DNA of 52,966 nucleotides, counting the filler, from Jimgerdemannia flammicorona (taxonomy: Eukaryota), in assembly GCA_003990765.1 (NCBI GenBank). It is 2 parts of 2 records of this genome, joined end to end, with 100 filler letters (N's around TTAATTAATTAA, not from the genome) between each part and the next. Parts side by side here need not be neighbours in the genome. Positions count along the whole stretch, not along the records: positions 26,542 to 52,966 come from RBNJ01000729.1; 1 more part is not named here. The stretch is one strand, 5' to 3'. A model generated the notes under the pieces. That model worked only from the letters and a program-made list of their open reading frames with translations. It was not told the DNA's origin and did no database searches. This document shows, one piece after another, positions 3,901-52,587 of the stretch (the stretch's first letter is position 1; each line of letters starts with the position of its first letter). The translations under genes and the position numbers were made by a program.

Positions 3901-4633
3901 CACTCATTTTATATCTTGAGAATTACTGTTCAGAGAAAAAAGTTCTGAAGAAAGCTTATTATATATCTAATAAAGATATAATGATTATATCAAATAAAGA
4001 AGACTAAAGATTATATAATTAAGAAATAGACTCTATAATAGAATAATATAAAAAAGATTTATAAGCTTCTAGAGATTATTAAGATAAGAGATCAAGTTTA
4101 GTATATTAAAATATAATAGAAGTTTTATAGTTATAAAAACTAGAGCCTAAATAGAAAGAATCTTATTTTATTTAAAATATAAAAAGAATTATTTTTTATT
4201 ATAAAAATTCTCAAATATATATAATTATCTCTATTACTATATATTAAAACTGACTTAAGAAATATATATTATAGCAAATAACTCATATATTATTATTACT
4301 CTTAAGATCATAAGTATTACTCAATAAGCTATTAAAAAATAATAATATATATATATGTACTATAAGATAGATATTCTATAAGTGCACAACCTCTAAGCCA
4401 TCAAAATCACATATCACCCTCTGAATAAGCCACTGAAATCACATACAACCTCTGAACAAATCTGGAAATCACCTGCTTGATCATAAAGCTGAGTCAACAC
4501 GAAGTCACGGAACACAAGATTCACACAAACAGAATCTTACCAATTAGGACCAAATGCATATATACCGAGTATCAAAACATATCAAATCAGAGAACTAAAA
4601 CAAATAACAATCATAACTTCCAAACACACAAAT

Positions 4634-5731
4634 ATGACCACTAAGATCTACACTCATATCTATACTGACATTTAGAATACCATTATCAACAGAGCCACTT
4701 CCCCTCTACCCCTCATGAATATCTATAGCCTGGCACTCCTCTATTTTGTGGAAGCCTGATGGAACATCCTAAATATACTCAACGAGGTCCACCAAATTGG
4801 ACAAATCTCAAGCTACTACTAGATCAGTCACCTCCTAGAAGACATGGTTGAACACCACTATGATACAGATATTACCCAGATGTCTCAATATCAGAAACTT
4901 ATTGTCTGCAAATACTGAGAACTCTTCTACAAGTATAGCACTGTTATTTTCTGTCTCTGAGTTACTATAGCTGAAATGGTTGCTACCCTGTCCTATGGCC
5001 AAATCGACAATATGATACAAGAACTCAACTACAAGTATCTCAAGTACATCAAAACCACAGACAGAACCTTCCTACACCCCAATGATCATATCCTACAAAT
5101 GCCTCAAGTCAGATATACTATGAAGGATGTCTACAATATAATCCACTTCAATGAAGATGAAGCAGAAGACAATGATCTCTCTGATGCTGACATAACCTCA
5201 AGCCAAGGATCCCTGCCAACCCTGATCATACTGCCAACCTTACCGATGAACTTACAACAATTCATAACAGTATATGAGACTTATTGGGACAATGACCACT
5301 GGTACAAATACCAACCTGCGTTCACCCCCAATTACTTCAACTACAATAAAGAAACTAGAGAACACAACCTGTACCTCCAGACAACCCTCGAGATTGAACC
5401 AACCACTCTACCACCTGAGTATGAGTAACATGAACCACAGCTACCAGCTTACTACAATTCCATGACTCATAGTGCTGTAACCTACAGAAGGTATGCAGAC
5501 AGTGAATCTAATGAAAGCAAAGATGATGTACCTCTCCTCCACCCACCAATATCTTATCCAGCATACAAGACAGATGATGCTATTCTGTAGGATAGTGATG
5601 AAGTTCCAATGTATTATTACCTCAGTGAACAAGGAGAAGTAATCCATGAACTACTTTTCCTAGACAACTACTTCATCAGAGATGATGTCATCGATGGTGA
5701 TATCATCGAAGACTACCCAGACAGTGTTTAA
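4634..5731 (+). pseudogene. LTR-A U3-embedded ORF (365 codons plus stop; internal stops, no frameshift)
   Basis: ATG 4634 to TAA 5731 = 1098 nt. Internal stops are transition-derivable and mostly sense codons in sister copies (9021-10118 minus, also 1098 nt; 17280-18364 minus, 13-bp deletion). Confidence 0.7.
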
Positions 5732-11999: not shown

Positions 12000-13330
12000 C
12001 CAAGGTGAGAGTTTGAATAACCTCTTCAATTGGTAGTCTGGAGATTGCATCAGCAACAATATTTTCCTTACTAGGGTGGTACTGGATTTTGTAGTCAAAG
12101 TTGGTGAGGACTTTCATCCATCTGGCTTGCTTTCGAGAAAGGGTAGCCTGTGTTTTGATATTGACTAATGATTTGTGGTCAGTCAATACGGTAAAGTGTG
12201 CTCCTTCTAGGTAGGGTCACTATTTGATCAGAGTATCTACGATGGCTAGCATTTCCTTCTCGTGGGTTGTATAGTTAATTTCAGCATCATTGAACTTGTG
12301 GGAGTGATAGGCCACAGGGTATCCTTCTTGCATGAGTACTGCTCCAAGGGCTAGATCAGAGGCATCAGTGGTAACTTCATATGACAGTACAGGGTTTGCT
12401 ACTTGAAGTACTAGAGTGGTTATCAGGGCATCCTTTAGTACTTGAAAGGCAGTATCTTGCTCAGGTCCCCAAGTTACAAGATTGTTGAAGTCTTTCTCTT
12501 GTTTTATAGTCCAGGGTTGTTCTTGTTTCTTGCTATGCTTGGTCATTTGGGTGAGAGCAGTAGCAATTTTAGCAAAGTTGGCAACAAATCGCCTGTAATA
12601 GTTTGCTAATCCCAGGAATGACTGGAGGTCTTTCAGCTTTTTGGGTCTGGGCCAATCCTTGATTGTAGAGATTTTGCTGGAGTCCACTTTGATTCCATTT
12701 GGGGTAATGATGTGTCCAAGGAATTGAATTTCTTTCAGGAGAAATTCGCACTTGCTGAGTTTTGCAAAGAGTCAGTTTTCTCGGAGTTTCAGTAGTACTA
12801 GTTCAAGGTATTCAAGATGTTCCTCCAGAGTTTTGCTGAAGACTAGGATGTCATCAATGTAGACAACAATGAATTTGTCTAGGTATGGGTGCAGGATAGT
12901 ATTCATCAGGGTCTAGAAGGTTGCAGGAGTATTAGTTAAGCAAAAGGGCATAACCAGGAACTCAAAGTATCCATAGCGAGTTCAGAAAGCTGTCTTGTAG
13001 ATGTCTTCTTCTTTCATAGCAATTTGCCAGTAACCATTTCACAGGTCAAAGGAGCTCATGAATTGTGGATTGGTGAGCCTATTGAATATTTCATTGATCC
13101 TTGGTAGTGGGCAACAGTTCTTGATGGTCTATTCATTGAGATCATAGTAGTCAATGAACATTCGCAGGTCTTTTCCTTTTTTGACAACAAAGAGGACCAG
13201 TGCGCCATAGGGTGATACACTGGGTCTAATGAATTCTTGTTCTAGGAGTTCATCAATTTCCTTCTTGAGTGCATCAATTTCTCTCGGAGATATGTGGTAG
13301 ATTGACTTGAAGGCTGGTTTGGCATCTGAG
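12000..13330 (-). pseudogene. Reverse transcriptase and RNase H
   Basis: [81 protein letters not shown]. Confidence 0.92.
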
Positions 13331-36423: not shown

Positions 36424-36567
36424 GCCCGGAGTTTTGCAGTGTGATGGGAGAGAAGTTGTAATTTGCTACAATAATTGCAATACTAGGTATGACATCAGAG
36501 GAAATAACCATAAACAAACAAAAACGGTTGATTGATTTACTGCTCTTGCTTTTGACAACCTCTCACC

Positions 36568-38049
36568 ATGAAGGTTCAAAGTGCAAAGAAAAGCCAGTTC
36601 CGCGCTACCATTCAGACTAGAGCTTCTCCTTCAAACAGACCATCTTCCCCAAAGCACACAATTGACCTCGCAGGCTATGGGGAGTCCAACATCATCGACT
36701 CTGCCGAACACTCCGCCCGCCAGCACCTTACGTTACCTGCTTCGTTGCCGCCGCGCTCCTCTCAACCATTTACCACGACATTCTTCGAGACACCGTCTTT
36801 ATTGCAGCTTCCCACCGAGCTCCTCACCAAACTGACGACCCATCTGCCCTTCCCATCTTATATCGCTCTTGCGATGACTTGTAAAACACTTTATTCTCGC
36901 CTATTCTCCCACGAAATTATCTTTTATCTCAAGAACCGATTCAACTTGAACGCTCAGAGCGGCAGTATGATCGTTTTCGCCTATCAAACGGGCCTCATCA
37001 CCAAGGCGCCCCGCGTTTGTGAAGCGATCCTTGATGAGTTTTTTAACGGTCGCGCCGGTGACGAGGCCGGCAAGTCGGGAGCTAGCTCTGCCCTCTCACC
37101 AGCGTCGACATCGGCCATCAGCACAAGAAAAGAACAGTTCAAAACGGTTCGGTTTTGGGCTGTTCTATACGCCATCCATAGGGCGATTCCCGTGTATTTC
37201 GACACAATGCTTGGGAGTGCGGACCCTAATGGTGGGCCCTTCCCCCATGCTACAAGCCAACCTCAAGCGAATCAGAATACTCCTGCGATTCCCACGCAAA
37301 CCTCTGCTTCCTGTTTCTCTGCCGAGCCAGCCTTAGACACAACATCGCAGCGAACACGCACGCCGACTCCTTACTTTGGCTCAGAGACCCAACATTTCAA
37401 ACCACCTACGTCCGGTCAGAACCTCGCGTTTCTGGAGAAATATGTATCATACATGCACGACGCGAGTGACGATTTCATCCCTCATAAATCCGTCGTCAGC
37501 ACCGCCGAATCTCCTCCGTCATCATCTGATAGCCCTGACACTGGTACTGACGGTGTAGGTCTACTGTCACCTTCCGTAACCTTACCAACAATTTATACCT
37601 GCAAGACATATCACACTATCTTCCTACATGTTCTCAAATCTGGCGACCTCGACATCCTTGAATTCTATCTTCGCACCTATGGCCCACCTTTTTGCAATTT
37701 CCGGTTGCGTGGGGACGAGTACGATGATTTAGAAGGGCTTGACCTCGGTGGTGGGCCTATGGACAATAATGGCGGCTACGTCAATAACAATGGACATCAT
37801 GGGGTTGGCGGGACTACCCTGGCGACTCAGCATCAAACGTACGGGCAGCATCATCAGCAAAATGGCGTGTTGGCTCCGCTCGTACCCGCATCAGCGGCTG
37901 CAGCTTGGGTGTTTGGTAATGGGGGGACGAACAGTAGCAATGCTAGTGCCAGTGGCAATGGGTACGGTAACACGGGCAAGGAGTTAAGGCGTAAAGTAAA
38001 GCAGTTGCTGGAGAGGTATGGGGTGACAGTCTCGGACGGGATCATGTGA
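36568..38049 (+). CDS. F-box domain protein, single exon, 493 aa
   Basis: SLLQLPTELLTKLTTHLPFPSYIALAMTCKTLY F-box motif. Confidence 0.75.
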   Translation: MKVQSAKKSQFRATIQTRASPSNRPSSPKHTIDLAGYGESNIIDSAEHSARQHLTLPASLPPRSSQPFTTTFFETPSLLQLPTELLTKLTTHLPFPSYIALAMTCKTLYSRLFSHEIIFYLKNRFNLNAQSGSMIVFAYQTGLITKAPRVCEAILDEFFNGRAGDEAGKSGASSALSPASTSAISTRKEQFKTVRFWAVLYAIHRAIPVYFDTMLGSADPNGGPFPHATSQPQANQNTPAIPTQTSASCFSAEPALDTTSQRTRTPTPYFGSETQHFKPPTSGQNLAFLEKYVSYMHDASDDFIPHKSVVSTAESPPSSSDSPDTGTDGVGLLSPSVTLPTIYTCKTYHTIFLHVLKSGDLDILEFYLRTYGPPFCNFRLRGDEYDDLEGLDLGGGPMDNNGGYVNNNGHHGVGGTTLATQHQTYGQHHQQNGVLAPLVPASAAAAWVFGNGGTNSSNASASGNGYGNTGKELRRKVKQLLERYGVTVSDGIM

Positions 38050-38305
38050 AGTTACCACACGCATATGGGGATCTGGGGAACGTTGCAGAACAGATCAACG
38101 GTATTTTGTGCTCCTCTGCTTCGGAGATCATTCCATGTCTGTATTTCACGAAATCTATAGTGTAGGTTTAAACGTCTCATGTGACTTCTGTGCAAAAGAT
38201 GTATGCAACAATGACGTCATCAGTAAAATACATCAACGACTCGCCGACAAATATAAAGATAGACCGTCGCTTTCTTTTGTTTGCACGATGCAGAAATTAG
38301 AGGCC

Positions 38306-41300
38306 ATGAAAGAGCGCGGATACACACTATAAGTATTGATTTCGTTCTCTGTGATATTTGAACTACTCCTCGCCCGTTGATCCTAATATGTATTTGGGTA
38401 ATTTCTGGGCGCCTATACGAGTCATGAACGTTTTGTCCTCGAGATCGATCAGGAGAGAAGAAGGCTGCAAGTAAGAGCTTTTTCTAGCCTTAGTAACTTG
38501 CGCTGGTTTTCACAGTCTCGAAGGCTCATTGTGCGGTTGTATTCTTCACATTTGGTGTTTGCTCACAGGGGTTTGCCGAGCTTTCAATTACGCCGCTCCA
38601 TGATAAGCTGACGAGCATTAAACTCAACTGTCGACAATGTCGTGAGTATGGATTTTAAAACAATGCCAATGATGTTACTACAACGCTCGGTGTTTATACT
38701 CACTCAACACTTCGCCTTGCTCGAAAGAAATTACCAAGGTTACACTCAATAGTATAAAAGCGAAGTATGAGTACATAGATCCACTCGCCGACTTGTCGTT
38801 ACCCCTTGCAACGACGTCCGTGTCGCAACACCAGGACTATAGGCGTCGCTATGTCTCGGCTTTACAAGAGGGCAACGAAGGTGAAGTGGAAGTAATTGTA
38901 CCACAAGGGACAGTGATGTTGAAACAGGTATGAAAGAAGCTTTACGACACGCTAGTAGCTGTTGATTTCTAGGTCTAATGTATTGCCATTTCTTTCAATG
39001 CTACACAGCAGGACGAGGAGCCTATTAATCGCGTAACGCATTCAGACGGCATCATACTGGCATCACGTCCCAATGGTATATCTTGCTTTTGCATTACCTG
39101 AATCAATTTTACTCTGTTGTTATTGACGTCGCTGACTTCAAGCCAATCTTATCTCAGCAGACATAGCAATTCCAGAATCAATGCCGTCACAGACACCTAT
39201 TACCAATACACTACCAGACGCTGTAGTACGCTACGCATCGCTCACGTTACGCATTGAATATTACTTGGAGGATCCGCGTGCAGGGGTTATGTTTGTGGAA
39301 CCAGATCCCCTGGTGGCTCCTCATGTAAGCAGATGTTTTACTCAGCGTGCACGTCGCAGTTTCCCAATAATGCACGGTCAAGCTCCTTTTGTACATACAT
39401 GTTCATGTCGCTGACATTGCTTCAATATTGTCACTCCCAGCGATATCCGCACATGTATACTGTGAATCAACCCTTACCTGGGGGTGCACGACTTTGGTTG
39501 CCTTGCATTGATGATATATCTGTGCGTTGCACGTGGGAAATGGAGTTCATTGTACCTCAAGGATTATCAGATGTTGATGAAAAAATGCATGATGGGTCAA
39601 TCTCCATAGAAGAGGATGAAGCGACGGTGGTGATATGTAGTGGGGAGCTTGTTGAGCAGGTTGGTTTCTCTGCACAACTACGTGGACTATCTCATTTTCA
39701 GCCATCCTAAATAATTTATCATTCCCACAGACGTCACACCCAACAGATCCGTCCAAAAAAATCGTACATTATGTCCAGTCAGTCCCAACACCGGCGCCAT
39801 TCATCGCTTTTGCTGTCGGTCCCTTCGAGATCACCAAATTCTCGCCATTGGATTTGACATCTAATCAAGGGTTGGAAGGGACAGGAGAGAACAAAGAGAA
39901 ATCGCTGGATGGGGTCAACGCGAGACATGACATCTTTGGGTTCTGTTTACCTGGACGAACCGAAGAATTAAGAAACACCGCGTTGTTCCTCACAAAGGTA
40001 TCATTTTAGGCGTGATACTACCAAATTTCTCACCGTTTATTACCTGCTAACTTTGTCATGGTACTGAACTGTGATGATCAATTCCAATATCTAGGCTCTA
40101 CGTTTTTACTCGCAAGAATGTGGAACATATCCCTTTTCTGATTTCAAAGTAGTTTTTGTCGAGGAGGCTTGGTGTCCCGCAATGTCATCTGCATCTCTAG
40201 CCATTTGCAGGTGATCTTTACTAACACTACTTGGTTTACAATTGTTTGATTATATTATATATAAGGAAACTATATTCTCACTCGAATTCGACTCCTCCCC
40301 GCACAGCACTCAACTTCTCTATTCCCCAGATGTGATTGATCAGGCATATGAGACTCGTCGATTGTTGAGCTTAGCGCTTGCGACGCAGTGGATGGGGATC
40401 CATATCGTGCCAAAAATATGGCCTGACATTTGGCTGATCATCGGGATGGCCAATTTCATCACCGCGATTTTTCTTAAGAAACTTTTGGGTAACAATGAGT
40501 ATCGACTGCGTTTAAAGAAGGTTGGTATTATTATTTTATCGCTGTATATAGATTTGTCTCAATCTGTCTCAAATACGTTCTGCATGTGACATAATTTTGA
40601 TTGCAATTTTGAACTATTCAATGTAGGACATTTCTCGTTGTTGTGCAATGGATGTTGGCCGACCACCCCTGTATAACCATTCCCTACCACCAATCGATCC
40701 GGACGACTTGGAATTCATGGAGCTGAAAGCGCCACTTGTATTGTGGATGCTGGATAAACGCATGCGTAAGGGCGGGGGCACCCTCGGTCTTTCGCGAGTT
40801 ATCCCAAAAATTATGGTGGCACAGATGAGCGGTGAGCTAGTCCACAATGCGTTGAGCACCCACTGGTTGTTTAAGTTATGCCGGAAAATCAGCGGTGTAG
40901 AGTTGAAGAGCTTTATCGACCAGTGGATTTACCACAGCGGATGTCCCAAATTCAAATTCCGATACGTGTTCAATCGGAAGAAAATGGTGGTTGAAATCAC
41001 TATGACTCAAGAAAACACAAACGCTGCCAGCGGACATGAATATTCTGACGTCATCGGAATGCCAGCAGACGAGACAGCGACTCCACTCTTCACTGGAAAT
41101 CTAACAGCTCGTATTCATGAAGCTGATGGAACGCCGTACGAACACATTCTGGATATCCAAGAGGTCTCCAAGAAATTCGAAGTGCAATTCAACACGAAAT
41201 ATAAAAGAATTCGTCGCAATACTAAGAGGTTTCAAGCTAAGCAAGCGGCCGCGGCCGCGGTTGCCGCTGAAGAGGACATTTTAGAAGGTGATGAGGGTGA

Positions 41301-44300
41301 AGTGGCAGCACTTGGAGTGATCCCGGTTCTTGGATTGGGCATGCCAATGTTCGAGAACGAAACGGAGCGAGAAGAATGGCGTGTAGTTGAGTGGGGTCAA
41401 GGTGAAGATGACATCAGTGGTGCTGCAAGGTGAGATATTCATTTGGATCGTATCTATGTACTACAAGTTTCATTAAGGCAAAGCAGAAAGGTATATGTAA
41501 CGGGGACCTCCCTACCTTTGAAAAATAGCGCAACGTTCGATTGGATCAGATTGGATGCCGAATTTGAATGGGTTTGTGTGCTCGACTTTACACAGCCCGC
41601 CTACATGTGGGCTGCACAATTGACAAAGGACAGAGACGCTGTTGCGCAGTACGAGGTAAGAAAGAAGCCTTTCTACTCTGGGTATGCAATGATTGGACGG
41701 ATCCATAACTCGAAAAGCAACTCTTGTTTATATTCGTTAGGCCATCGAAGCGCTTAAAGCTCAACCAACTTTAACGGCTTCGACAAGCCTGTTGCGTGCT
41801 TTGATGGACCAGAAATGCTTCTATAGAATTCGGATGGAAGCTGCATATGCTTTGGCAAAGGTATGTGAAAAATCGTTTTCTCCCGCGATAGATGTGAGTG
41901 TCAAATGCCTGTCACTTGCTGAAATTGGAATTTATATTGATTTTCGTGAAAGTGTGCGACTCCAGAGCTTGAGTGGGTCGGCCTACTTCAGTTGACAAAG
42001 GCTTTCCAGAAGCGGTTCTGTTACCAGTCATCTGCGTCAACTGGGCACGTCCCTGAAGGAGAAATTCCCGTTCTACCTTGCATTCCTAAACCAAACAATT
42101 TCTCGAGTTTAACGGAATACTTCGTGCAGAAAGCCATTCCAGTCGCGGTTTCACAGATTAGAGATGAACGGGGTCAAGCACCGCTTAAAGTAAAGCACTT
42201 CCTTTTGGACCTCTTGAGGTACAACGATAATACTGGTAACACGGTAGGCAGTTCTCATATAATTCCTGGATGGGCCCGCCCTATCTTCTTGCCATATTTT
42301 GACGGAATTTTTTCTTCTAGTATTCCGACAACTACTATGTGAGCACATTGATAAGTGCCCTAGGCCATTCGTTGATCTCAGACCCGCGTGTGGCGAAAGA
42401 AGGTGCTGATGGCATGGAAATTGACGATTTTGACAGTATTGAGATACTGGAAGAGGCCAAGCGGGAGATCGACCGGTATCGGACACTTGATTACTTGATA
42501 CCGACTTATCACAACACAATCACCGTTGCTTGCTTACAGGCAAGTCCTCATTGCGTATTGTTGGAAAATTGCGTGATGCAGCGGTTAGTGTAATCGCACT
42601 TCGACGTATGTTCAACTGAACCTTACTCTGTTATTTTAACAGACCTTCACGAGCTTGATGTCTGCTGGTTTGATGCAGCCTGACTTTCGCTTGTACCTAA
42701 CACATTGCAGGTGTGTTTTTCCACTTTGGATTCACCTATCTCACAACCTTTCATACCCTTTCCCGATTGAACCGCCGAGATGTAACGTTAACATGCATTC
42801 CCTTTTTCTCCGGACGATTAGATATGGCAATTTCTTGGCAGTCCGCATGACTGCAATTGACAGTCTTTTTATCCTAAATGGCTTGCACAACTGCGACCTA
42901 ATCAAGTATTTCTTCAGCATCATCTGCCAAGATCCGTGCCCGTACATGTCATTTTACGTCGCGCGAGGTCTAATGAAGTTGCTCGGTCTGATGATGGGAA
43001 ATCGTGGCGACCGGATCCACAAAGATTTCGTGGATGACCTGGTGGAAGAAGAGGGCAAGGTTTTTGCCCAGGATGCACAGAGTATTCGGAATGTGAATAA
43101 TTTATCCTTTCAGGAGGCGGTGGATGAGGTGCGAAAGGAGCTTGGTAGCAATACGGTACTTCAACATTGCTTATGGAATTCTTTGAAGTGAGTCCCGTTA
43201 TATACATTTGTCCCTCGTAATCTATTTCGCCGGCGAATCGGAATTGCGTTCTACATTTTTTTCGTGGCACCCTTGCAATTATACTAAACGGATATTGTTC
43301 CTGGCCTTGTCTTGTTTTGGGTCCATAAAGTTCAAACCCCTTTTTGGACCATCTTATCCGCAAATTCCTTTTGCGGTTCTGTGAAGTGGTCTATAAACCT
43401 ATTGATCTAGGCCTTCCGAGATTGAGGTTCCGTATGCCAGCCCCGGTAATTCGTCGTTATTTATATTACGAACCGTTCAGGGGTCTGATAAATACCATAA
43501 GGAGGAATATATGATTAGGCAATGGCAATGAAGAGATTGTGGAGAATGTTATTTTTGCAAGAACGTCAGTGTGCCTGAAAAGCACTAATTCTCGAATTGA
43601 TTCCCCTAGGCGATCGAGGTCACTGTCGAAGGTGAACCTGAACCGGAGTCAAATAAACCTTCTGTGGTTAAGTCATTGCCGGGCAAAACCTCCTCACATA
43701 AAGCCAAGCTGAACTCTATTCCAACCGAGGTATACGGTTAGTGTCATAAACAACCTTGTTGAAAATGATGATTAGTTTAAGTCGCTTAACTATAATCCTA
43801 TTAACATGCGTCACAGATTCGCAAGTGATCAAAAATGACACGAAATTGACTCCCGTGAACAATATGCAGGATGACATTGTAAAAATAGCAAAAAAAATTG
43901 TTCCCCATAGCAAAATCAAGAAGGACGTTGGGAATGATTCCAGCATATCTGCGACAGCTTTTCGGCAACAAACATCATCTACAGTCACTTCGGTTGCTTC
44001 CACAGCATTTTCCATGTCGTATAACGAAAGCAAAATATGCCGTCGACTATTAAAAAAGTTATTGAATCACAAAAGTTCGTGGCCGTTCCAAAGGCCAGTC
44101 GATGAAAATGGAGGTAATCTAACATCCACATTGTTATCCATTTACATACGCGATTGTGAGTGAAACAACATGCTTACCTATAGAATGCTTTACGGGCGGC
44201 AATGCTTAGCTCCCAACTATTATTCGGTTATACAGGTATGGAAAAATGTGCGCAGTTTTACCCATCGGGCTAGTTGCATAAAGAATTACATATATGCATA

Positions 44301-47300
44301 ATAAATCGACTTCATACTCAGGAACCGACGGATTTGTCCACGATCAAGGTAGGCATGGACATTGACGGTGCATGAACTGAATCTCAATACACTTACATAA
44401 CATGCATAATATCTAATCCTGACTTATTCACGAACATATAGACAAAGCTGGATAATGGGGGCTACACATCCGCAAACGGATTTTATGCCGACGTTAGGCT
44501 TATGTTTGCAAATTGCTACAGCTACAATGGTCTTGGATCTCCCGTTCAGGTCGAAGGCACAACGCTTGATGCATATTTTGAAGATGAATGGAAAGCAGAA
44601 TTTGGCCAAGATGGTGAAGAGGTAAACTTGACTATCGCAGAAACGCCAGATAAAGACGCGTCGAAAGTACTTGAACTACACGATAAGCTTTCGCGGTCAT
44701 TGTCAGGGACGAATGAAAATCGATCCTTGGATCCACCGGCGTCAACTCCAGTTTTGATTTCTCGACCCACGACTTCGAATATGGATCTCCAAAAATGTCA
44801 ACGGATCCTGAAGAGATTGGTGGATGACCCTGCCTCATATGAATTTATGAAACCTGTGGATCCCGTGAGGCAATGCATTCCGCATTATGTGGAGGTTATC
44901 AAACAACCTATGGATTTAGGCACCATTGGTAACACGCTCAGTTTTGTTATATTTACGTCCAGTCCTTTAATATCCATGTGCGATGTTCATTCCAATACAA
45001 TGTTGCGTCTTGACAGGAACCAAATTGAAATCTGGAGCATATTCGAACGTTGAAGAGTTCGATTTTGACGTCCGTCTCGTTTTCGACAATTGTCTCCGAT
45101 TCAATCAAGCCGGGACGTTTGTATATCAACAAGGTCAAAAAATGCTGGAAATCTACGAACAAACCCGGAATGAGCAAATCACTGGAAATGAGCAGAAGGG
45201 TCTCGTCAATGTGAAGGAAGGCTCGACGAAGCCCAAGCTACCAGCTGTTTCAAAGGATGTTCAAAAGATGCGTTCAGCATCACCCGCTGGAGACGCAAAG
45301 GATGGAATTCAAGATCGCGGGATTACTCCTGATCCCCCTCGTTCAAAAAATTCCATACAAGCAACACATCCAACTGTTTCTGTCGGAAAAAGGGACACGA
45401 TGGTATTGGTTAAAGACAAGTCACATCCAGGAGTACCGAACGAAGGTGGTATTCCTCCTATGCCAGTCAAAGGAACAATGGCGAAGGAAAAGGTTCTGAT
45501 TTCAAAAGATAAGACTATACAAACAGTTGCAGACAAGCCCATACCTACAGTTATCAGAGACAAAATCGGAGCATCAATTGTGTCTCGAGAAAAACCATCG
45601 ACGCGACCGAAGGACGCCGTCAAGCCTGCCTCTCCGAACCGTGGAAATTTATCGTCAAAGTCAATCCCTGACGTATCTGCTACATTTCAAAATGCCACCG
45701 AAAGTCGGATAGACGAGACTAGCAAAGCAAAATGCGGCAAGCTACTCGACAAGCTTGTTTCGCACCAATCTTCTCAACCATTTCAGCAACCAGTAGATGT
45801 CGTAGCGTTGAATATTCCCAATTATCCTAAAATCATCAAGGTAAATGTTGAGCCGCTGTAGATGAATAAATAGATTCCGAGAAGCATAGACCTAACATTC
45901 TCTTTTTCTATTTCCCAGCGACCTATGGATCTTTCAACGATCCGGAAGAATCTAGATGCTGGGAAATACGCGACCATTGGATCCTTTGAGATTGATTGTC
46001 GGCAAATATTCTGGAATTGTTTCAAGTTCAATTCGCCTGATTCGTGGGTTTATGAACAAGGAAAAGCTCTTGAGTCACTTTTCAATCAGCTGTGGTCGGC
46101 GGAGTTTGGCCGAAAGGATGCACTCCGAGCTGACGACAAGAGAAAGGCTCAGAAAATTTTGCAGAAACTTATAGGTAGTGATGCCGCGAATATATTCCTG
46201 GAACCTGTTGATTTAGAGGAACATCCTAGGTATCTCGAAGTTATCGAACATCCCATAGATCTCCGAACAATCTCTGAGAAACTCGAGTCGGGAAAATACG
46301 GTTCTTTTCGCGATCTTGAAGATGATATTCGACTCATGTTCGAAAACTGCTATACTTTCAATGCACCTCTAACGGTCGGTAACGAAATGGGCAAGCAGCT
46401 AGAGGACCTGTTTGATACAATTACTAGAGAGCTCAAGCTACGTACAAAGAAGGAGGCATTAGCCACGCAACTTCCTACCAAGCCAAAATCGACACCAATT
46501 GTTGCAGCAAACATAACACGAACATCTCCTCTCAAAGTTGCGACAGTAGCTAAGGCGCCCGGCCCGACGTTACCGATATCACCCGCGGAAAAAATGAACA
46601 AGGCTCTTCAGTTAATTACCGATGTTAAGAGGATGGATAAGATACTGAAGAAGTTGATGACTCACAGAGCTGCCGCGGCCTTTAACAGACCTGTACGTTT
46701 CCTATCATTTTCGACTTACTCAATTTTCACGCTGTCGCATTCACACTGCGTTGCATTTTCCAGGTCGATCCTATTACTGAGAACGTCCCGCACTACCTTG
46801 AGATAATCACAAAGCCTATGGACTTTTCGACAATGTTAGTGTGCCTTCTATTCCGTCCTTCCCATTTCTCGAGACGCACAACGCAATGCTCTAACCGTTT
46901 CTTAATTTTGATCCAGAGACCGAAAGCTGAAAGCGGGCAAATACAAGAACATGGCGAACTTCGCAGCGGACGTTAGGTTGGTCTTTGCCAATTGCTACAA
47001 GTTCAACAGCTCTGAACACGTCCTATCCATACAGGCGAGCTCCTTGGAGAGCATGTTTGACAAGGAAATTGAAAGAGAGTACATACTCATCGAGAAGGAT
47101 AGCTTGTCACAAGTGTCTAAAGATGACGAAGACTCGGGGACAGTACCCTCGAATCGCGCAAAGGCTGTACCGTTTAGATCACCAACCACATCTTCGGTTG
47201 ATCAAAGAGCTGAACTCAAGAAATACGAACAAGTTCTCCGAAAGTTCAAAACACATACAGCTTATCACATTTTCCAAGAGCCAGTAGATGCTGTGGCATT

Positions 47301-48045
47301 AGGCATTCCACAATACCATACTATTGTCGAGAGACCGATGGATTTTGGGACGATCGAGAAAAGGCTTAGAACAGGAACATATAAGCGGACAGAGGATTTG
47401 GTCAGAGATGCCGCTCAGGTATTTTACAATTGCTATCTTTTCAACCCTTCGGACGATTGGGTGTACAAGGCTGGGCAAGAGCTTGAAAAAGAGTGGATGG
47501 CCCTGTGCACCCAACGCGGCTTAAGATCCGGCGTCCCCGTGGTAAGGGCGACATCTACTAGCACCCCTGTCGTGGAAACTCCATTGCCGCCGCAAGAACC
47601 ATCAACCATGCCAATCGATGTTCCGATGGCCGAAATCGACTCTGTTTTGGTTACAGATCAAGTGGGTACAGAGTGTTTTACCATCCAAAATATATACTCC
47701 TGCTTGGGTGTTCCTGCCCTCTGTTATGGTTGTTAATGACGAACAAATTTGATTCAGGGAGAGGAGACGCTTACCAAAAAGCGCAAAAAAGAGAAGAAAG
47801 ACAAGGAGAAAAAAAAGCGCAAGAAACACAAGCATCGACACGGGCACGATCACGGTCATCCGCGTCACTCTTCTTCTTCACAACATGAGGGTACGAGTAG
47901 CAGATCCATTTCACCTGTAACCAATGATATCTTGTCGGACGGTGATGGCCCATTCTCCGATGAAGAAAATCAAGATAGTGAAGGAGACCCTCGCGTTGTT
48001 GCGAGCCCATCTCCTGTCAAGCTCAAGCTGAAACTAAACCGATAA
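38306..48045 (+). CDS. TAF2: TFIID subunit TAF2 (aminopeptidase-like fold) fused to six C-terminal bromodomains; many exons
   Basis: RGYTL|SHERFVLEID, LNCRQC, ARLWLPCIDD..CTWEMEF, FAVGPF, LKKLLGNNEYR, KAPLVL..LDKR, HEADGTPYEH, WIRLDAEFEW, LLRYNDN. Phase-consistent exons link to the bromodomains and a K/H-rich tail KKKRKKHKHRH. Confidence 0.93.
38329..38418 (+). other. Putative AT-AC intron 1 of TAF2
   Basis: CT|ATAAGTAT...CCTATAC|GAGTCAT restores L-S-H; the GT alternative leaves an in-frame TAA. Confidence 0.7.
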
Positions 48046-48311
48046 CCCCACAGCTCTAAGATCATCGTGTTTGTGTTTGCTGCAGAATTCCTTACATATT
48101 TTGCTTTTTCCAGATTGTCCCTTTCTATTTTTTTTTTTTTTGGAACGTTAATGTAGACGAATTTGGTCGTGTGCGTACATAGGGCACCAATAAACAAGAA
48201 GAGAATTACTTAGTATGGCAAGCGTGAATAATGTCGTCCCAGTTGGTTCTCTCTTCCCTCGTTATACCAATTGTCTCACCCGATTGATGCCCCACTAATC
48301 TCGCCTACACC

Positions 48312-51300
48312 ATGAGTCAAACCAACCCAGATCCCCAGACTACATCGGAAACCACAGTACACGCAATAAACAATCAACTTGCCAACGTAAACATCAACCG
48401 GCAATCACCGACGACAGACATCATCGACGATGGCTATCCGGCGCCGACACACGATAGTTCTCAAGCGAACCTCTCCCATCACTTTCCAGGAGTTCCCGGT
48501 TTCTTGGAAGACCAGCCGATTGCAAACGCTTCTGCTGTGCCCTCCTCATTGAACATTAAGCCAAAAATATTCCGAAATGCCGATCCGTCCATTAGCGAAA
48601 CGCGTCCTTCGCGCTTTGTCAAGCCTGCCACGACTCCCTTGTTTCACCCCGAAGAAGTACCCGCAGATTTGCAACCTGTCCTCAAACTATACGAACATTA
48701 CAACAATAAGGTGTATATGGAAGGTTATCTTTACAAGATGAACGATATGACACCAGAGGGAAGACCTTTTCCAACACGCGAGTGGGTCAAATGTTATGTG
48801 GAATTGTGTGGACCTATTTTGACTTTCTGGGAATTTGATGCAGTAGGCGATGATCGGGAAAACGGCGACGCCGGAGCACTTCGGCCGAATTATATCAACA
48901 TTACCGATTCTACCGTAGACATCAATAATTCAACGCAAGAAAGCCCTCCTAGGGATCACGTATTCAGCTTGAATTCCGCTGGAGCAAATCGCTTTTTTTT
49001 GCAGACTGTCGATGAGCGGACGCTTAACCGGTGGGTTAGCGCCATTCGCCTTTCCTGCTTCGAGATTGGCAAGTTGCACGAGATCTATACCAGAACACTT
49101 CTGTCGCGACCTTCTTTCAAGGATATTCTTGACAAGCACAGCAGCAGATTCGAGGGATACCTTCAAGTTCGGTTTACAGGTACCACTGAGTGGCAGAGGT
49201 ATTGGGTGGTCGTATCTGACAAGAGAGACGAAAAGAAGTTATTCGGGAAGAAGTCCCAGGCCTCCCGTGGACAATGCCTATTTTACGAAACAAAAAAGTC
49301 GAAGAACCCCGCCATGACCTTGGTAAACGTGTACCAGGCCTACGCAGTATACCCTGAGACGCCACAGCTCGTCGAAAAAGCCACCATCCTGAAGGTCGAA
49401 GGCAGCTTATTTGGCTCCATCAAAGCTTCTTCTCCAAGCGAATCCAAATCTAGCAGCTTCGTTTTATTGATGGCGGCGACCAACAAGGAAATGGCTAGCT
49501 GGCTTGTTGCAAGTTTCGACGCATTCAAGCTGTATGGCCGTCCAAACGCGCTGCTGGGTAGCTACACAGAGCCAACATCAATGTGCTTTGCCCAGCCTGC
49601 ACCAGAAGTAGATAGTGGGCGACTCTTTTTGGACCTTGAAGAAGTGGAACACATTCACATGCGTGGTGAAAACCTGGCAGATGTGAAGATGGCGTTCAGT
49701 GACATCCTGCAGTCGAAACTGCAATCGCAATACCAGACTCTATTACCACCTCCAAATAATGCGTACGGCCGCACGTTCCAAGGTGGAGATCGAGGACATG
49801 ATGAATTCATTCATAACCACACGATGCCGGGAGTCCCCGAAATATTGCACGCCGGACCCGGTAATCAACGCACAGGCGGACAATCTTTGGCACCCCAAAT
49901 CCAGCCCGGTTCACTCAGACCCTCGTCTTCTGCAGAGGCTTCGAGGAACCGATCTGTGTTAAAGCCGCTCAAGAAAGGTAGAAAAGTGGCGGATTCTAGC
50001 GAGGAGAGTGACGAAGAATCCGCAAATGAGGATGATGACGATAGTGAAGACGAATCCACCCTTCCTGGACGCAGAACATCCACAAGCAAGACGGAGAACA
50101 TTCTTAAACCACGGCCTAGTACAAGCACTACTAGAAATGCCGCATTCCACCAACTTCCCGAAGACCCTGCTCCCAGCAATTCCATAAACAGCCTTATGAA
50201 AGGCAAGAAAGGAGCACCTGTACCCTCTGACTCTGAGGAAGAAGACGACGATGCAACCATCGACAGCGAAACTCTTAGCACGCGCAACGTTCGCGTGAAA
50301 GGGATCACTAAGGGTAGACCACCTCCTGCCCCGTCGGATACGGAGGAAGACGAACTAGAAAGTAATGTCTACGATGGTGATAGTAGTGTCGGTAACGAGT
50401 TGTCTTCTGCGGCCAGCATTACAAGGCAACAACAATCCGTGGCCAAGAAACCCGAATCAAAACATCCCTTTCAAGTTCAGCAAGGAGCAATGCCGTCTCA
50501 ACCACCGACCGGCATCTATGGTAACATGTCTGCTTACCAGCATCCCTCTGGAATGATGTGGGTCGGACCAAGCAACGCGCACGGAGACTCTTACCAGCAA
50601 CCGTTGGGTTATTCTGCTTATAATGCCGGATACCACCAATACCCGCCAGAGGCGGTAGGTCGACAAAGTGATGGTATAATCCAGCAGCAGCGTTCGGTCG
50701 GGTCACTGTCAAGACCGATTAAGGAGGAATCAAGTAACCAGAAGCATATCAAGCGCCCTACCAGCATAGCGGCAAGTACGGCAACTGACTTGACCGAGGA
50801 GTCACGCAATGAAGAAGAGTACGATGACAATGATGGCGAAATCGAGGAAGCTACATCACGAGCCGCCAATGAAAACCAGGCGCCCACTCTTGAATTCGGT
50901 GCGGCACCGAAATTGGACCTGGATTTCTCTGCTGATATGTTCAACCACTTCGGTAGACGTCCATCCGATACCGAGAAACAAGGTGTTTATTCTACTGCCA
51001 ACATTTTAACAGCGGAGGCGCCTACATATCCAGACAAAGACAATACCGATTACGGGGAGAAAGATGAGCCGAATGAAAACGATGATGGTTGGAGGAGAGA
51101 GCGAAGAGATAGCAAAGACAGAAGATCCTCTCAACAACACGAGGCACTTAAATTTGGACCTGCCGATATGCGTAGGTCCAGCAGTGCAAGCGGAAGTCGT
51201 ACAAGTCTTACAGGGTCTTCCGTGGGATCCGAATCGAACCAACAAATTCTACCACAAGCTGCATATCCGCAAGCAACGCATGATCTGATGAGGCCGCGAT

Positions 51301-52587
51301 CTCCTTCGCCTGTCGGACTGAACCCCAACGATAGGCGGTGGATAGCACGTCCTCCTGTAAATGGTCCACTGCTTCCGTCTTCCGCTTCTGCCTATGGTGA
51401 TTACGAACATTCACAGGGTCCTCCGTGGGATAACGAGACTATAAATGATCCCCGATTGATGGGTCGAGGTGGACAGGGTGGGATGTATTATGATGACGAC
51501 GATTATCAAAGTGTTTCTGGCGATTTCCCTCGAGGATCACCTGGAGGAGCACGCCGCGGATTCCGTAATGAAGATACATATTCTTCGTATGATTACGATG
51601 AACCAAGATTACGAGGTCAACAAGTACCAGGCGTTGGCCAAAACTTTGTCAAGCAAGGAAGCTTACTGGGCATGCACATGTCTGAGCAATGGACAGCTAG
51701 GGAGCAGACAGAGTTTGCGAGAGTTACGGGCCAGCCATTAATCAACGTCCCGATCAAACCGCCGGAACCACAGACTGGTTTGGTGGGGATGATTACACAA
51801 CGTGAGCAACAACGTAAAATTGGCGGGACTTCTCAACGAATCGCAGATATCACGGGTGCAATGCAGCAAGAAGTCGAGAGGGAGAAATCATTGGAAAGAG
51901 AGCGAGAATGGCGCTTGATGGAGCAACGGCAATATATGCAACAGCAACAGGTATGTGCATTGTCTGTCATCCATGTCATATATAACTATTCATCGATTCA
52001 TCGCCAACCTGAAGTAGTTTCAAGACCGCTAATGGTAGCTTTGTTTTTACTTTTTTTACATCCAACAGATGATGATGATGGGCGCATACGGCATGATGGG
52101 GATGCCTATGGGTGGCCAATATATGGGTAACATGGGTGTGATGCCAATGGGCAACCAATACTTAGACCCACGCTATGCAATGGGGATGGCGCAAATGCCC
52201 GTGGGTGGTCCATACCTGGATCCACGTCTTTCGATGATGAGTGGCGCGGGCATGGGCGGAATTGGACAGGTACCTATGGGGATGGGTGGACAGTATGTTG
52301 ACCCTCGATATGGGATGTTCAATGCTGGTAACATGGGAATGGGATTAGTACCTGGACATAACATGCCTGCAGGGAACATGGGTAATAGAAGTGGCAGTAT
52401 TAGTGGTCCAAGTATTCCAGGCGCTGGCACCACATCTAGCGACGACGAAGATGATGTACCTATTGGGATGGTGAATTCTCCTTTGTTGCCCTCTCGATCT
52501 CTGTCACCTGCATTAGGTGGCAGCCAAGTGCACCATCGTGGCTCGTTCAGTGTAGCGAAAGATAGCAGTGGACCGACCAATACCTAA
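48312..52587 (+). CDS. Skg3/Caf120-like PH-domain protein; exons 48312-51950 and 52069-52587
   Basis: KVYMEGYL..WVKCYVELCGPILTFW..PNYINITD..LNSAGANRF..AIRLSCFE..LHEIYT; EGYLQVRF.G.TEW; AFKLYGRP; TAREQ..AR.TG.PL; GLVG.I..RE. Confidence 0.8.

Follow-up and report, generated by a model that had tools for sequence, protein, structure and literature searches.

TAF2 in the J. flammicorona window

The stretch of DNA analyzed here (the window; 52,966 nucleotides (nt) from the genome of Jimgerdemannia flammicorona) holds a TAF2 gene on its plus strand, the strand to which all positions given for this gene refer, and the first intron of that gene begins with AT and ends with AC. As judged from TAF2 homologues, Pfam domains, transcript contigs and bromodomain matches, the gene extends over approximately 38288–47733. 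Open reading frames (ORFs) between about 38.3 and 47.7 kb matched fungal TAF2 proteins, with top identities of 65–68% (Mucorales, Umbelopsis and Dichotomocladium), and carried the Pfam domains PF25316, PF25577, PF01433 and PF00439. Sequence similarity places the gene in the same family as animal TAF2, and an Umbelopsis homologue (P0007) searched against the TAF2 chains in the PDB matched the human chain at E 2e-105. The 3′ part of the gene (44442–47733) contains several bromodomain-encoding exons, with four ORF pieces matching PF00439; this C-terminal run of bromodomains is a fungal TAF2-bromodomain fusion that is already present in public homologues.

Coding exon 1 (38288–38328) runs from the start ATG at 38288 to CT, the first two bases of a leucine codon, and ends in phase 2. 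Its translation is MQKLEAMKERGYT, followed by CT, and its motif MQ..RGYTL agrees with the MQR..RRGFSI/L N-termini of fungal TAF2 proteins; the exon is supported by this N-terminal motif and by a piece of a transcript contig (X1, described below) that stops at 38328. An in-frame TAA (38330–38332, within the bases A-TAA-GT) lies just inside the intron, so that translation of a transcript retaining the intron would stop after 14 residues. The conserved frame, SHERFVLEID within SHERFVLEIDQERRRLQ, picks up again at 38420 in exon 2 (38419–38470), which consists of a G followed by the codons for SHERFVLEIDQERRRLQ and is delimited by a piece of a second transcript contig (X3) and by the next joint, 38470>38569, a GT..AG joint found in X1, X2 and X3. 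Joining 38328 to 38419 yields ...RGYTLSHERFVLEID, in agreement with the fungal TAF2 N-terminal consensus MQRE..RRGFS(I/L)SHQKVVLEIDF. A preliminary description of this DNA had pointed to the TAA after exon 1 and to the resumption of SHERFVLEID 90 nt further on, and both are present in the sequence as described.

Intron 1 has AT-AC ends and is spliced in RNA

Intron 1 occupies 38329–38418 and is 90 nt long, starting with ATAAGTAT (at greater length, ATAAGTATTG) and finishing with CCTATAC (at greater length, GCGCCTATAC). We enumerated all donor and acceptor positions that keep the frame from the ATG at 38288 into HERFVLEID, and found that AT-AC at 38329/38418 was the sole frame-keeping pair with recognized termini; the same enumeration gave no GT-AG or GC-AG pair that restored the frame. 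No GT occurs between the ATG at 38288 and the TAA, the first GT being at 38333, past the stop.

That first GT (38333–38334) is a cryptic site at intron positions +5 and +6, and together with the AG at 38420–38421, the only AG near the acceptor, it would delimit an out-of-frame GT-AG intron of 89 nt. This candidate was rejected: the TAA stays in frame, the 89 nt shift the reading frame, and no contig uses the pair.

Four transcript runs (X1–X4), all consisting of assembled contigs and blind to rare isoforms and to levels of retention, were aligned to 37500–47000. In the first record of X1, the last base of one piece is 38328 (record position 4495), and the next listed piece begins at record position 4887, which corresponds to 39160 in the window. 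The intervening 391 letters correspond exactly to the summed lengths of the exons at 38419–38470, 38569–38641, 38728–38923 and 39005–39074 (52+73+196+70), and therefore, by arithmetic, X1 joins 38328 directly to 38419. The same junction was read directly in X3, a root metatranscriptome RNA-Seq assembly, in which a single contig of 151 nt comprises 38272–38326, the letters TT, 38419–38470 and 38569–38610; it gives the junction 38328|38419 with a synonymous C>T change at 38327 (CTG to TTG, both leucine). J. flammicorona is a root-associated fungus of the Endogonales (Mucoromycotina), which fits a match in root material. The intron 1 junction was not covered in X2 and X4. The AT-AC termini and the use of the junction 38328|38419 in RNA are thus confirmed in transcript contigs of two studies, and the AT-AC intron first proposed from the reading frame is borne out both by these contigs and by the enumeration; the contigs showed neither a GT-AG junction nor another first exon at this place.

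Among the TAF2 joints listed, 14 of 15 were GT..AG. The fifteenth, listed as 42535>42639 with the ends AC..TA and a 4-base ambiguity, resolves to a GC-AG intron at 42540–42642. This other non-GT intron of the gene is 103 nt long, has the form GCAAGT...TTTAACAG, and is spliced out in contigs from X1 and X2.

Intron 1 carries U2-type signals

The 5′ splice site of intron 1, ATAAGT (38329–38334), is GTAAGT with G1 replaced by A, and is distinct from the U12-type ATATCC. It agrees with the U2 consensus GTAAGT at five of six positions, all but +1 (a plain count of positions), and so has the 5′ splice site by which Sheth et al. (2006; PMC1557818) recognized such introns, U2-like apart from +1. The 3′ splice site, TAC (38416–38418), is likewise YAG with its final G replaced by C.

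The signals of minor, U12-dependent introns are a donor with the consensus ATATCCTT and a branch box with the consensus TCCTTAAC, placed approximately 10–20 nt from the 3′ end. The start of intron 1, ATAAGTAT, agrees with the former at four of eight positions (ATA and one T), with the TCC at +4 to +6 missing, and no CCTTRA is present within the intron, so that it has neither the donor nor the branch box of the U12 type; the preliminary assignment of the donor as U2-like rather than U12 stands. By motif search, the best branch-site candidate is CTAAT (38383–38387), whose putative branch A (38386) lies 32 nt upstream of the 3′ end. It is the single CTRAY motif near the 3′ end of the intron, and the GT-AG introns elsewhere in this TAF2 gene have CTRAY at a similar distance, 21–30 nt from their 3′ ends. 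The branch site had been described as U2-like with a U12 flavour; the first part of that description holds, and the second does not, CTAAT being an ordinary fungal CTRAY placed much as in the neighboring introns. On the letters of its splice signals, then, intron 1 is a U2-type AT-AC intron.

A scan of the window against Rfam at the gathering threshold gave no matches. U12-type donors of the form RTATCCTT occurred six times in the window, against 5.16 expected, none with a well-placed downstream CCTTRAY box, a count that is uninformative as to minor splicing in the species.

The same AT-AC intron in other fungal TAF2 genes

A scan of metagenome contigs, for which 20 TAF2 proteins from fungi were aligned, gave 80 loci; exon 2 was located by a position-specific score and the sequence upstream of it was inspected. 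The automatic tally was corrected by eye for three loci (L039 as AT-AC, L030 as having no intron and L071 as unscorable). An AT-AC intron was present at the same codon and in the same phase in 20 of the 80 loci, or 20 of the 67 that could be scored (L001, L009, L010, L014, L015, L017, L019, L021, L022, L023, L024, L025, L027, L028, L031, L032, L033, L039, L059 and L062). The coding sequence was continuous, with no intron at the site, in 47 of the 80, and 13 were unscorable, with the N-terminus missing or no credible match. GT-AG or GC-AG ends were found at the site in none of the 67 scorable loci. In fungal TAF2 the AT-AC intron follows the second base of the leucine or isoleucine codon that precedes (S/G/A)HQ, a position that the window intron shares.

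Three of the 20 introns were exact duplicates, leaving 17 distinct introns, or 18 with that of the window. The donor was ATAAGT in eight of these 18 and ATACGT in ten, so that all 17 orthologous fungal introns have one or the other, and all 18 end in YAC. They range from 55 to 124 nt in length, and most have YTRAY 11–22 nt from the 3′ end; neither CCTTRA nor any other remnant of a U12 donor or branch box was found in the 18.

Judged by the most similar named proteins, L001 is Mortierellaceae-like (64% to Linnemannia), and its context is nearly identical to that of the window intron (…TACACTCT|ATAAGTG…CTTATAC|GAGTCAC…). Thirteen further AT-AC loci are Agaricomycetes-like (Russulales-, Agaricales-, Polyporales- and Phallomycetidae-like; 48–82%), and L024, L025, L031, L033, L059 and L062 are Pezizomycetes-like, with Sphaerosporella brunnea as the best named match (70%), followed by Geopyxis, Ascodesmis, Rhizina and Tuber. 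The presence of AT-AC at one codon in Mortierellaceae-, Agaricomycetes- and Pezizomycetes-like loci points to an old and stable state rather than a transient step. For Ascomycota and Basidiomycota, Larue and Roy (2023; PMC10639083) and Bartschat and Samuelsson (2010; PMC2846911) report no minor introns and the loss of most minor small nuclear RNAs (snRNAs); the Agaricomycetes-like and Pezizomycetes-like AT-AC introns must therefore use the major spliceosome.

In 17 of the 18 distinct cases, exon 2 opens with N-AG (a serine AGY codon, or A|GG in the Pezizomycetes-like loci), the exception being L032 (T|GCT). A cryptic AG thus lies 2–3 nt beyond the AC acceptor, and a cryptic GT lies at intron +5/+6; joint use of the two would shift the frame.

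Relation to published AT-AC introns

A U2-type intron with AT-AC ends, of the class termed AT-AC II, was listed in human and Drosophila TAF2 by Sheth et al. (2006; PMC1557818), whose first genome-wide list counts 15 such introns in human, six in mouse and three in Drosophila, while C. elegans and Arabidopsis have no entry. Under the designation “major (U2-type) AT-AC introns,” intron 5 of SYCP2 and intron 1 of TAF2 served as controls for de Wolf et al. (2021; PMC8280824), and their supplement lists human TAF2 intron 1 as AT_AC, type U2, with a length of approximately 750 nt. The same supplement gives values labelled mean PSI, of approximately 0.13–0.19, for the human TAF2 intron. The animal intron and that of J. 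flammicorona share the gene, the place as first coding intron, the AT-AC ends and the U2-type class, but differ in length (750 nt in human, 90 nt here). In the PDB search, F10-T-L12-S13-H14 of P0007 aligned with human Y26-K-L28-T29-H30 (“yklthq”), which puts the fungal junction L12|S13 opposite human L28|T29. The preliminary description suggested that animal TAF2 has a phase-2 intron at the equivalent site, YKL|THQ; the published AT-AC ends of human intron 1 and the alignment of the junction agree with this, and the human boundary may lie at the same codon. Intron 1 of the window and TAF2 intron 1 of human and fly are most likely orthologous.

The de Wolf et al. supplement also lists a separate, U12-type GT-AG intron elsewhere in human TAF2, with a donor row in which the exon ends ...CAG TGG GT (QWV). 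Human “ikqwvdqsg” aligns with fungal “aeqwiygsg” (P0007), and the counterpart motif in the window is FIDQWIYHSG (40627–41433); its DQWI falls inside an uninterrupted exon (40625–41427), so that this fungus lacks an intron where human TAF2 has its U12-type one.

Other non-minor AT-AC introns offer partial parallels. Those of SCN4A, SCN5A and other sodium-channel genes (PMC1557818) also have AT-AC ends and a U2-like donor and are processed by the major spliceosome, but they belong to unrelated genes and to vertebrate-specific expansions; the TAF2 intron, in contrast, occurs in both animals and fungi. The “other AT-AC introns” of Bartschat and Samuelsson (PMC2846911) form a small recognized non-U12 class in Mucoromycota and Basidiomycota, with three in Rhizopus, 31–32 in Phycomyces and two in Phakopsora in their Table 2, which gives counts without gene names. 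U12-type AT-AC introns, by comparison, share the terminal dinucleotides with the window intron but have the donor ATATCCTT and the branch box TCCTTAAC, both of which are absent from it. A literature search on TAF2 and AT-AC introns found no paper that describes an AT-AC intron in fungal TAF2, and in the supplement of PMC10639083, Jimgerdemannia and Endogone appear as tree labels only, without minor-intron counts.

A probable ancient U2-type AT-AC intron and its alternatives

Taking these results together, we consider it highly probable that intron 1 is a constitutively used AT-AC II intron, removed in a U2-dependent manner, that it is the counterpart of intron 1 of human and Drosophila TAF2, and that its AT-AC state is most likely older than the parting of animals and fungi. 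With the U2-type AT-AC intron found in human, fly and fungi alike, their common ancestor most likely had it in that state already. In terms of mechanism, ATAAGT would be read by U1 and U6 as GTAAGT would be, and the CTAAT branch would be read by U2, with a compatible A1-C(last) pair standing in for the G1-G(last) contact that normally forms in the second step. A1 and C(last) are known to compensate each other in the second catalytic step, either change alone being poorly tolerated; Sheth et al. (PMC1557818) cite mutational studies in yeast and human. Introns changed at one end only (GT-AC or AT-AG) would accordingly splice poorly, and the pair would tend to be lost with the whole intron and would rarely revert to GT-AG; since the animal-fungal split, the AT-AC intron would either have been kept with unchanged ends or been deleted outright. 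The lack of any GT-AG intron among the 67 scorable loci fits such mutual compensation.

Several points weigh against this interpretation. Removal by the major spliceosome in J. flammicorona itself is predicted from sequence comparison, and the putative orthology in position to the animal intron draws on the shared designation “intron 1” and on the L28|T29 alignment. Taxa were assigned to the metagenome loci by similarity alone, and several loci are repeat samples of one species, so that the 20 AT-AC loci represent approximately a dozen independent lineages. Finally, at least one of the loci scored as having no intron, L005 (94% to a Suillus protein and intron-free over 5.4 kb), resembles a spliced transcript rather than genomic DNA.

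The explanation that fares best beside it concerns origin, and is compatible with it in all else: the intron may have been of the U12 type, with AT-AC ends, before the animal-fungal split, and may have undergone a single ancient conversion to the U2 type. This is a possibility we hold to be real but the less likely one. It gains from the far greater frequency of AT-AC ends among U12 than U2 introns (353 and 24, respectively, in the table of Sheth et al., PMC1557818) and from the phase 2, 5′-proximal placement that the intron shares with many U12 introns (PMC10639083, PMC2426677), while Sheth et al. see AT-AC II introns as “a relic of U2-dependent introns.” Otherwise the intron would have originated by a double change, G1>A and G(last)>C, in an ordinary GT-AG intron.

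The intron could in principle be removed by the minor spliceosome in Jimgerdemannia despite its atypical donor, in view of its AT-AC ends and of a lineage that might retain minor snRNAs. We regard this as very improbable, as TCC is missing from +4 to +6 of the donor, no CCTTRA box occurs in the intron, the sole TCCT-containing motif is 32 nt from the 3′ end, and the orthologues work in fungi for which no minor splicing is reported (PMC10639083, PMC2846911).

Slightly less probable still is the view put forward in the preliminary description, that intron 1 is a minor-to-major conversion intermediate, that is, a U12-type AT-AC intron of an early-diverging lineage in recent or ongoing passage to the major spliceosome, tied to whether Mucoromycota keep or lose the minor spliceosome. 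Most AT-AC introns are of the U12 type, some Mucoromycota do keep minor splicing (PMC10639083, PMC2846911), and human TAF2 does have a U12 intron, though at another site (PMC8280824). However, human and fly, both with full minor spliceosomes, have a U2-type AT-AC intron at what is most likely the same site (PMC1557818, PMC8280824); the 20 fungal loci, Agaricomycetes-like and Pezizomycetes-like ones among them, have one there as well, and none of the 18 distinct introns retains a U12 donor or branch remnant. This view is therefore not supported for this lineage, and the intron is uninformative about the conversion of minor introns to major ones.

An artefact of assembly or annotation, with wrong bases at the intron ends or another first exon, can be set aside as practically negligible, given that two independent transcript sources yield the junction 38328|38419 and that the context CT|ATAAGT...TATAC|GAGTCA recurs in L001, a locus from an unrelated metagenome; two separate base errors would be needed.

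With the U2-type AT-AC reading retained, what had been a published curiosity of human and fly TAF2 extends to at least three phyla-level fungal groups besides the Endogonales fungus. Among the scorable loci, the site is either AT-AC or without the intron and never GT-AG, which makes it a clean natural case of a long-lived, coupled pair of splice-site bases. A further and rather doubtful suggestion is that intron 1 has stayed in this rare state from before the animal-fungal split on account of some function of its weak, non-canonical sites, which might, for instance, slow or regulate its removal and thereby tune the output of this TFIID subunit at the level of splicing. With an ATAAGT donor, a retained intron stops translation immediately. 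If this were true, the two-mutation barrier would not be the sole reason why AT-AC never reverts to GT-AG.

Public models of fungal TAF2

The N-termini of public TAF2 models vary at the place of this intron. Partial models from Linnemannia begin at SHQKV, those from Rhizopus and Mucor begin one exon later, and several Agaricomycetes models read ...RRGFSIY|KVV... or ...RRGFSIYVF..., as is obtained when AT|A-TAY-GT is translated into the intron or when the GT at +5 is used as a donor. Among P0001–P0120, we checked the first 90 residues of the 97 models of at least 1400 amino acids with a rough regular expression, which found the junction motif intact in 45 and not in 52; a few of the 52 are missed by the expression, being intact but divergent (e.g., P0010, P0013, P0040 and P0108). 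Many of the models without the motif begin at the intron or shortly past it, or read into it, which looks like systematic mis-annotation owing to the AT-AC intron. Annotation pipelines that bar AT-AC miss where this essential gene truly begins, with approximately half of the long public fungal TAF2 models examined truncated or mis-spliced at this place.

Neighboring features

Upstream of TAF2, the X1 contig runs unbroken from an F-box gene (ORF at 36556–38049) across a 240-nt spacer into TAF2 exon 1 (37500–38328, plus strand), a continuity that could reflect overlapping untranslated regions, read-through or a merge by the assembler. Downstream, a single-exon gene with PH domains (48288–52127) is 99% identical to a J. 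flammicorona protein and 56% identical to an Endogone protein. Elsewhere in the window, an ORF fragment on the minus strand (12223–12771) matches the reverse-transcriptase RNase H-like domains PF17919 and PF17917 and is probably the remnant of a retrotransposon.

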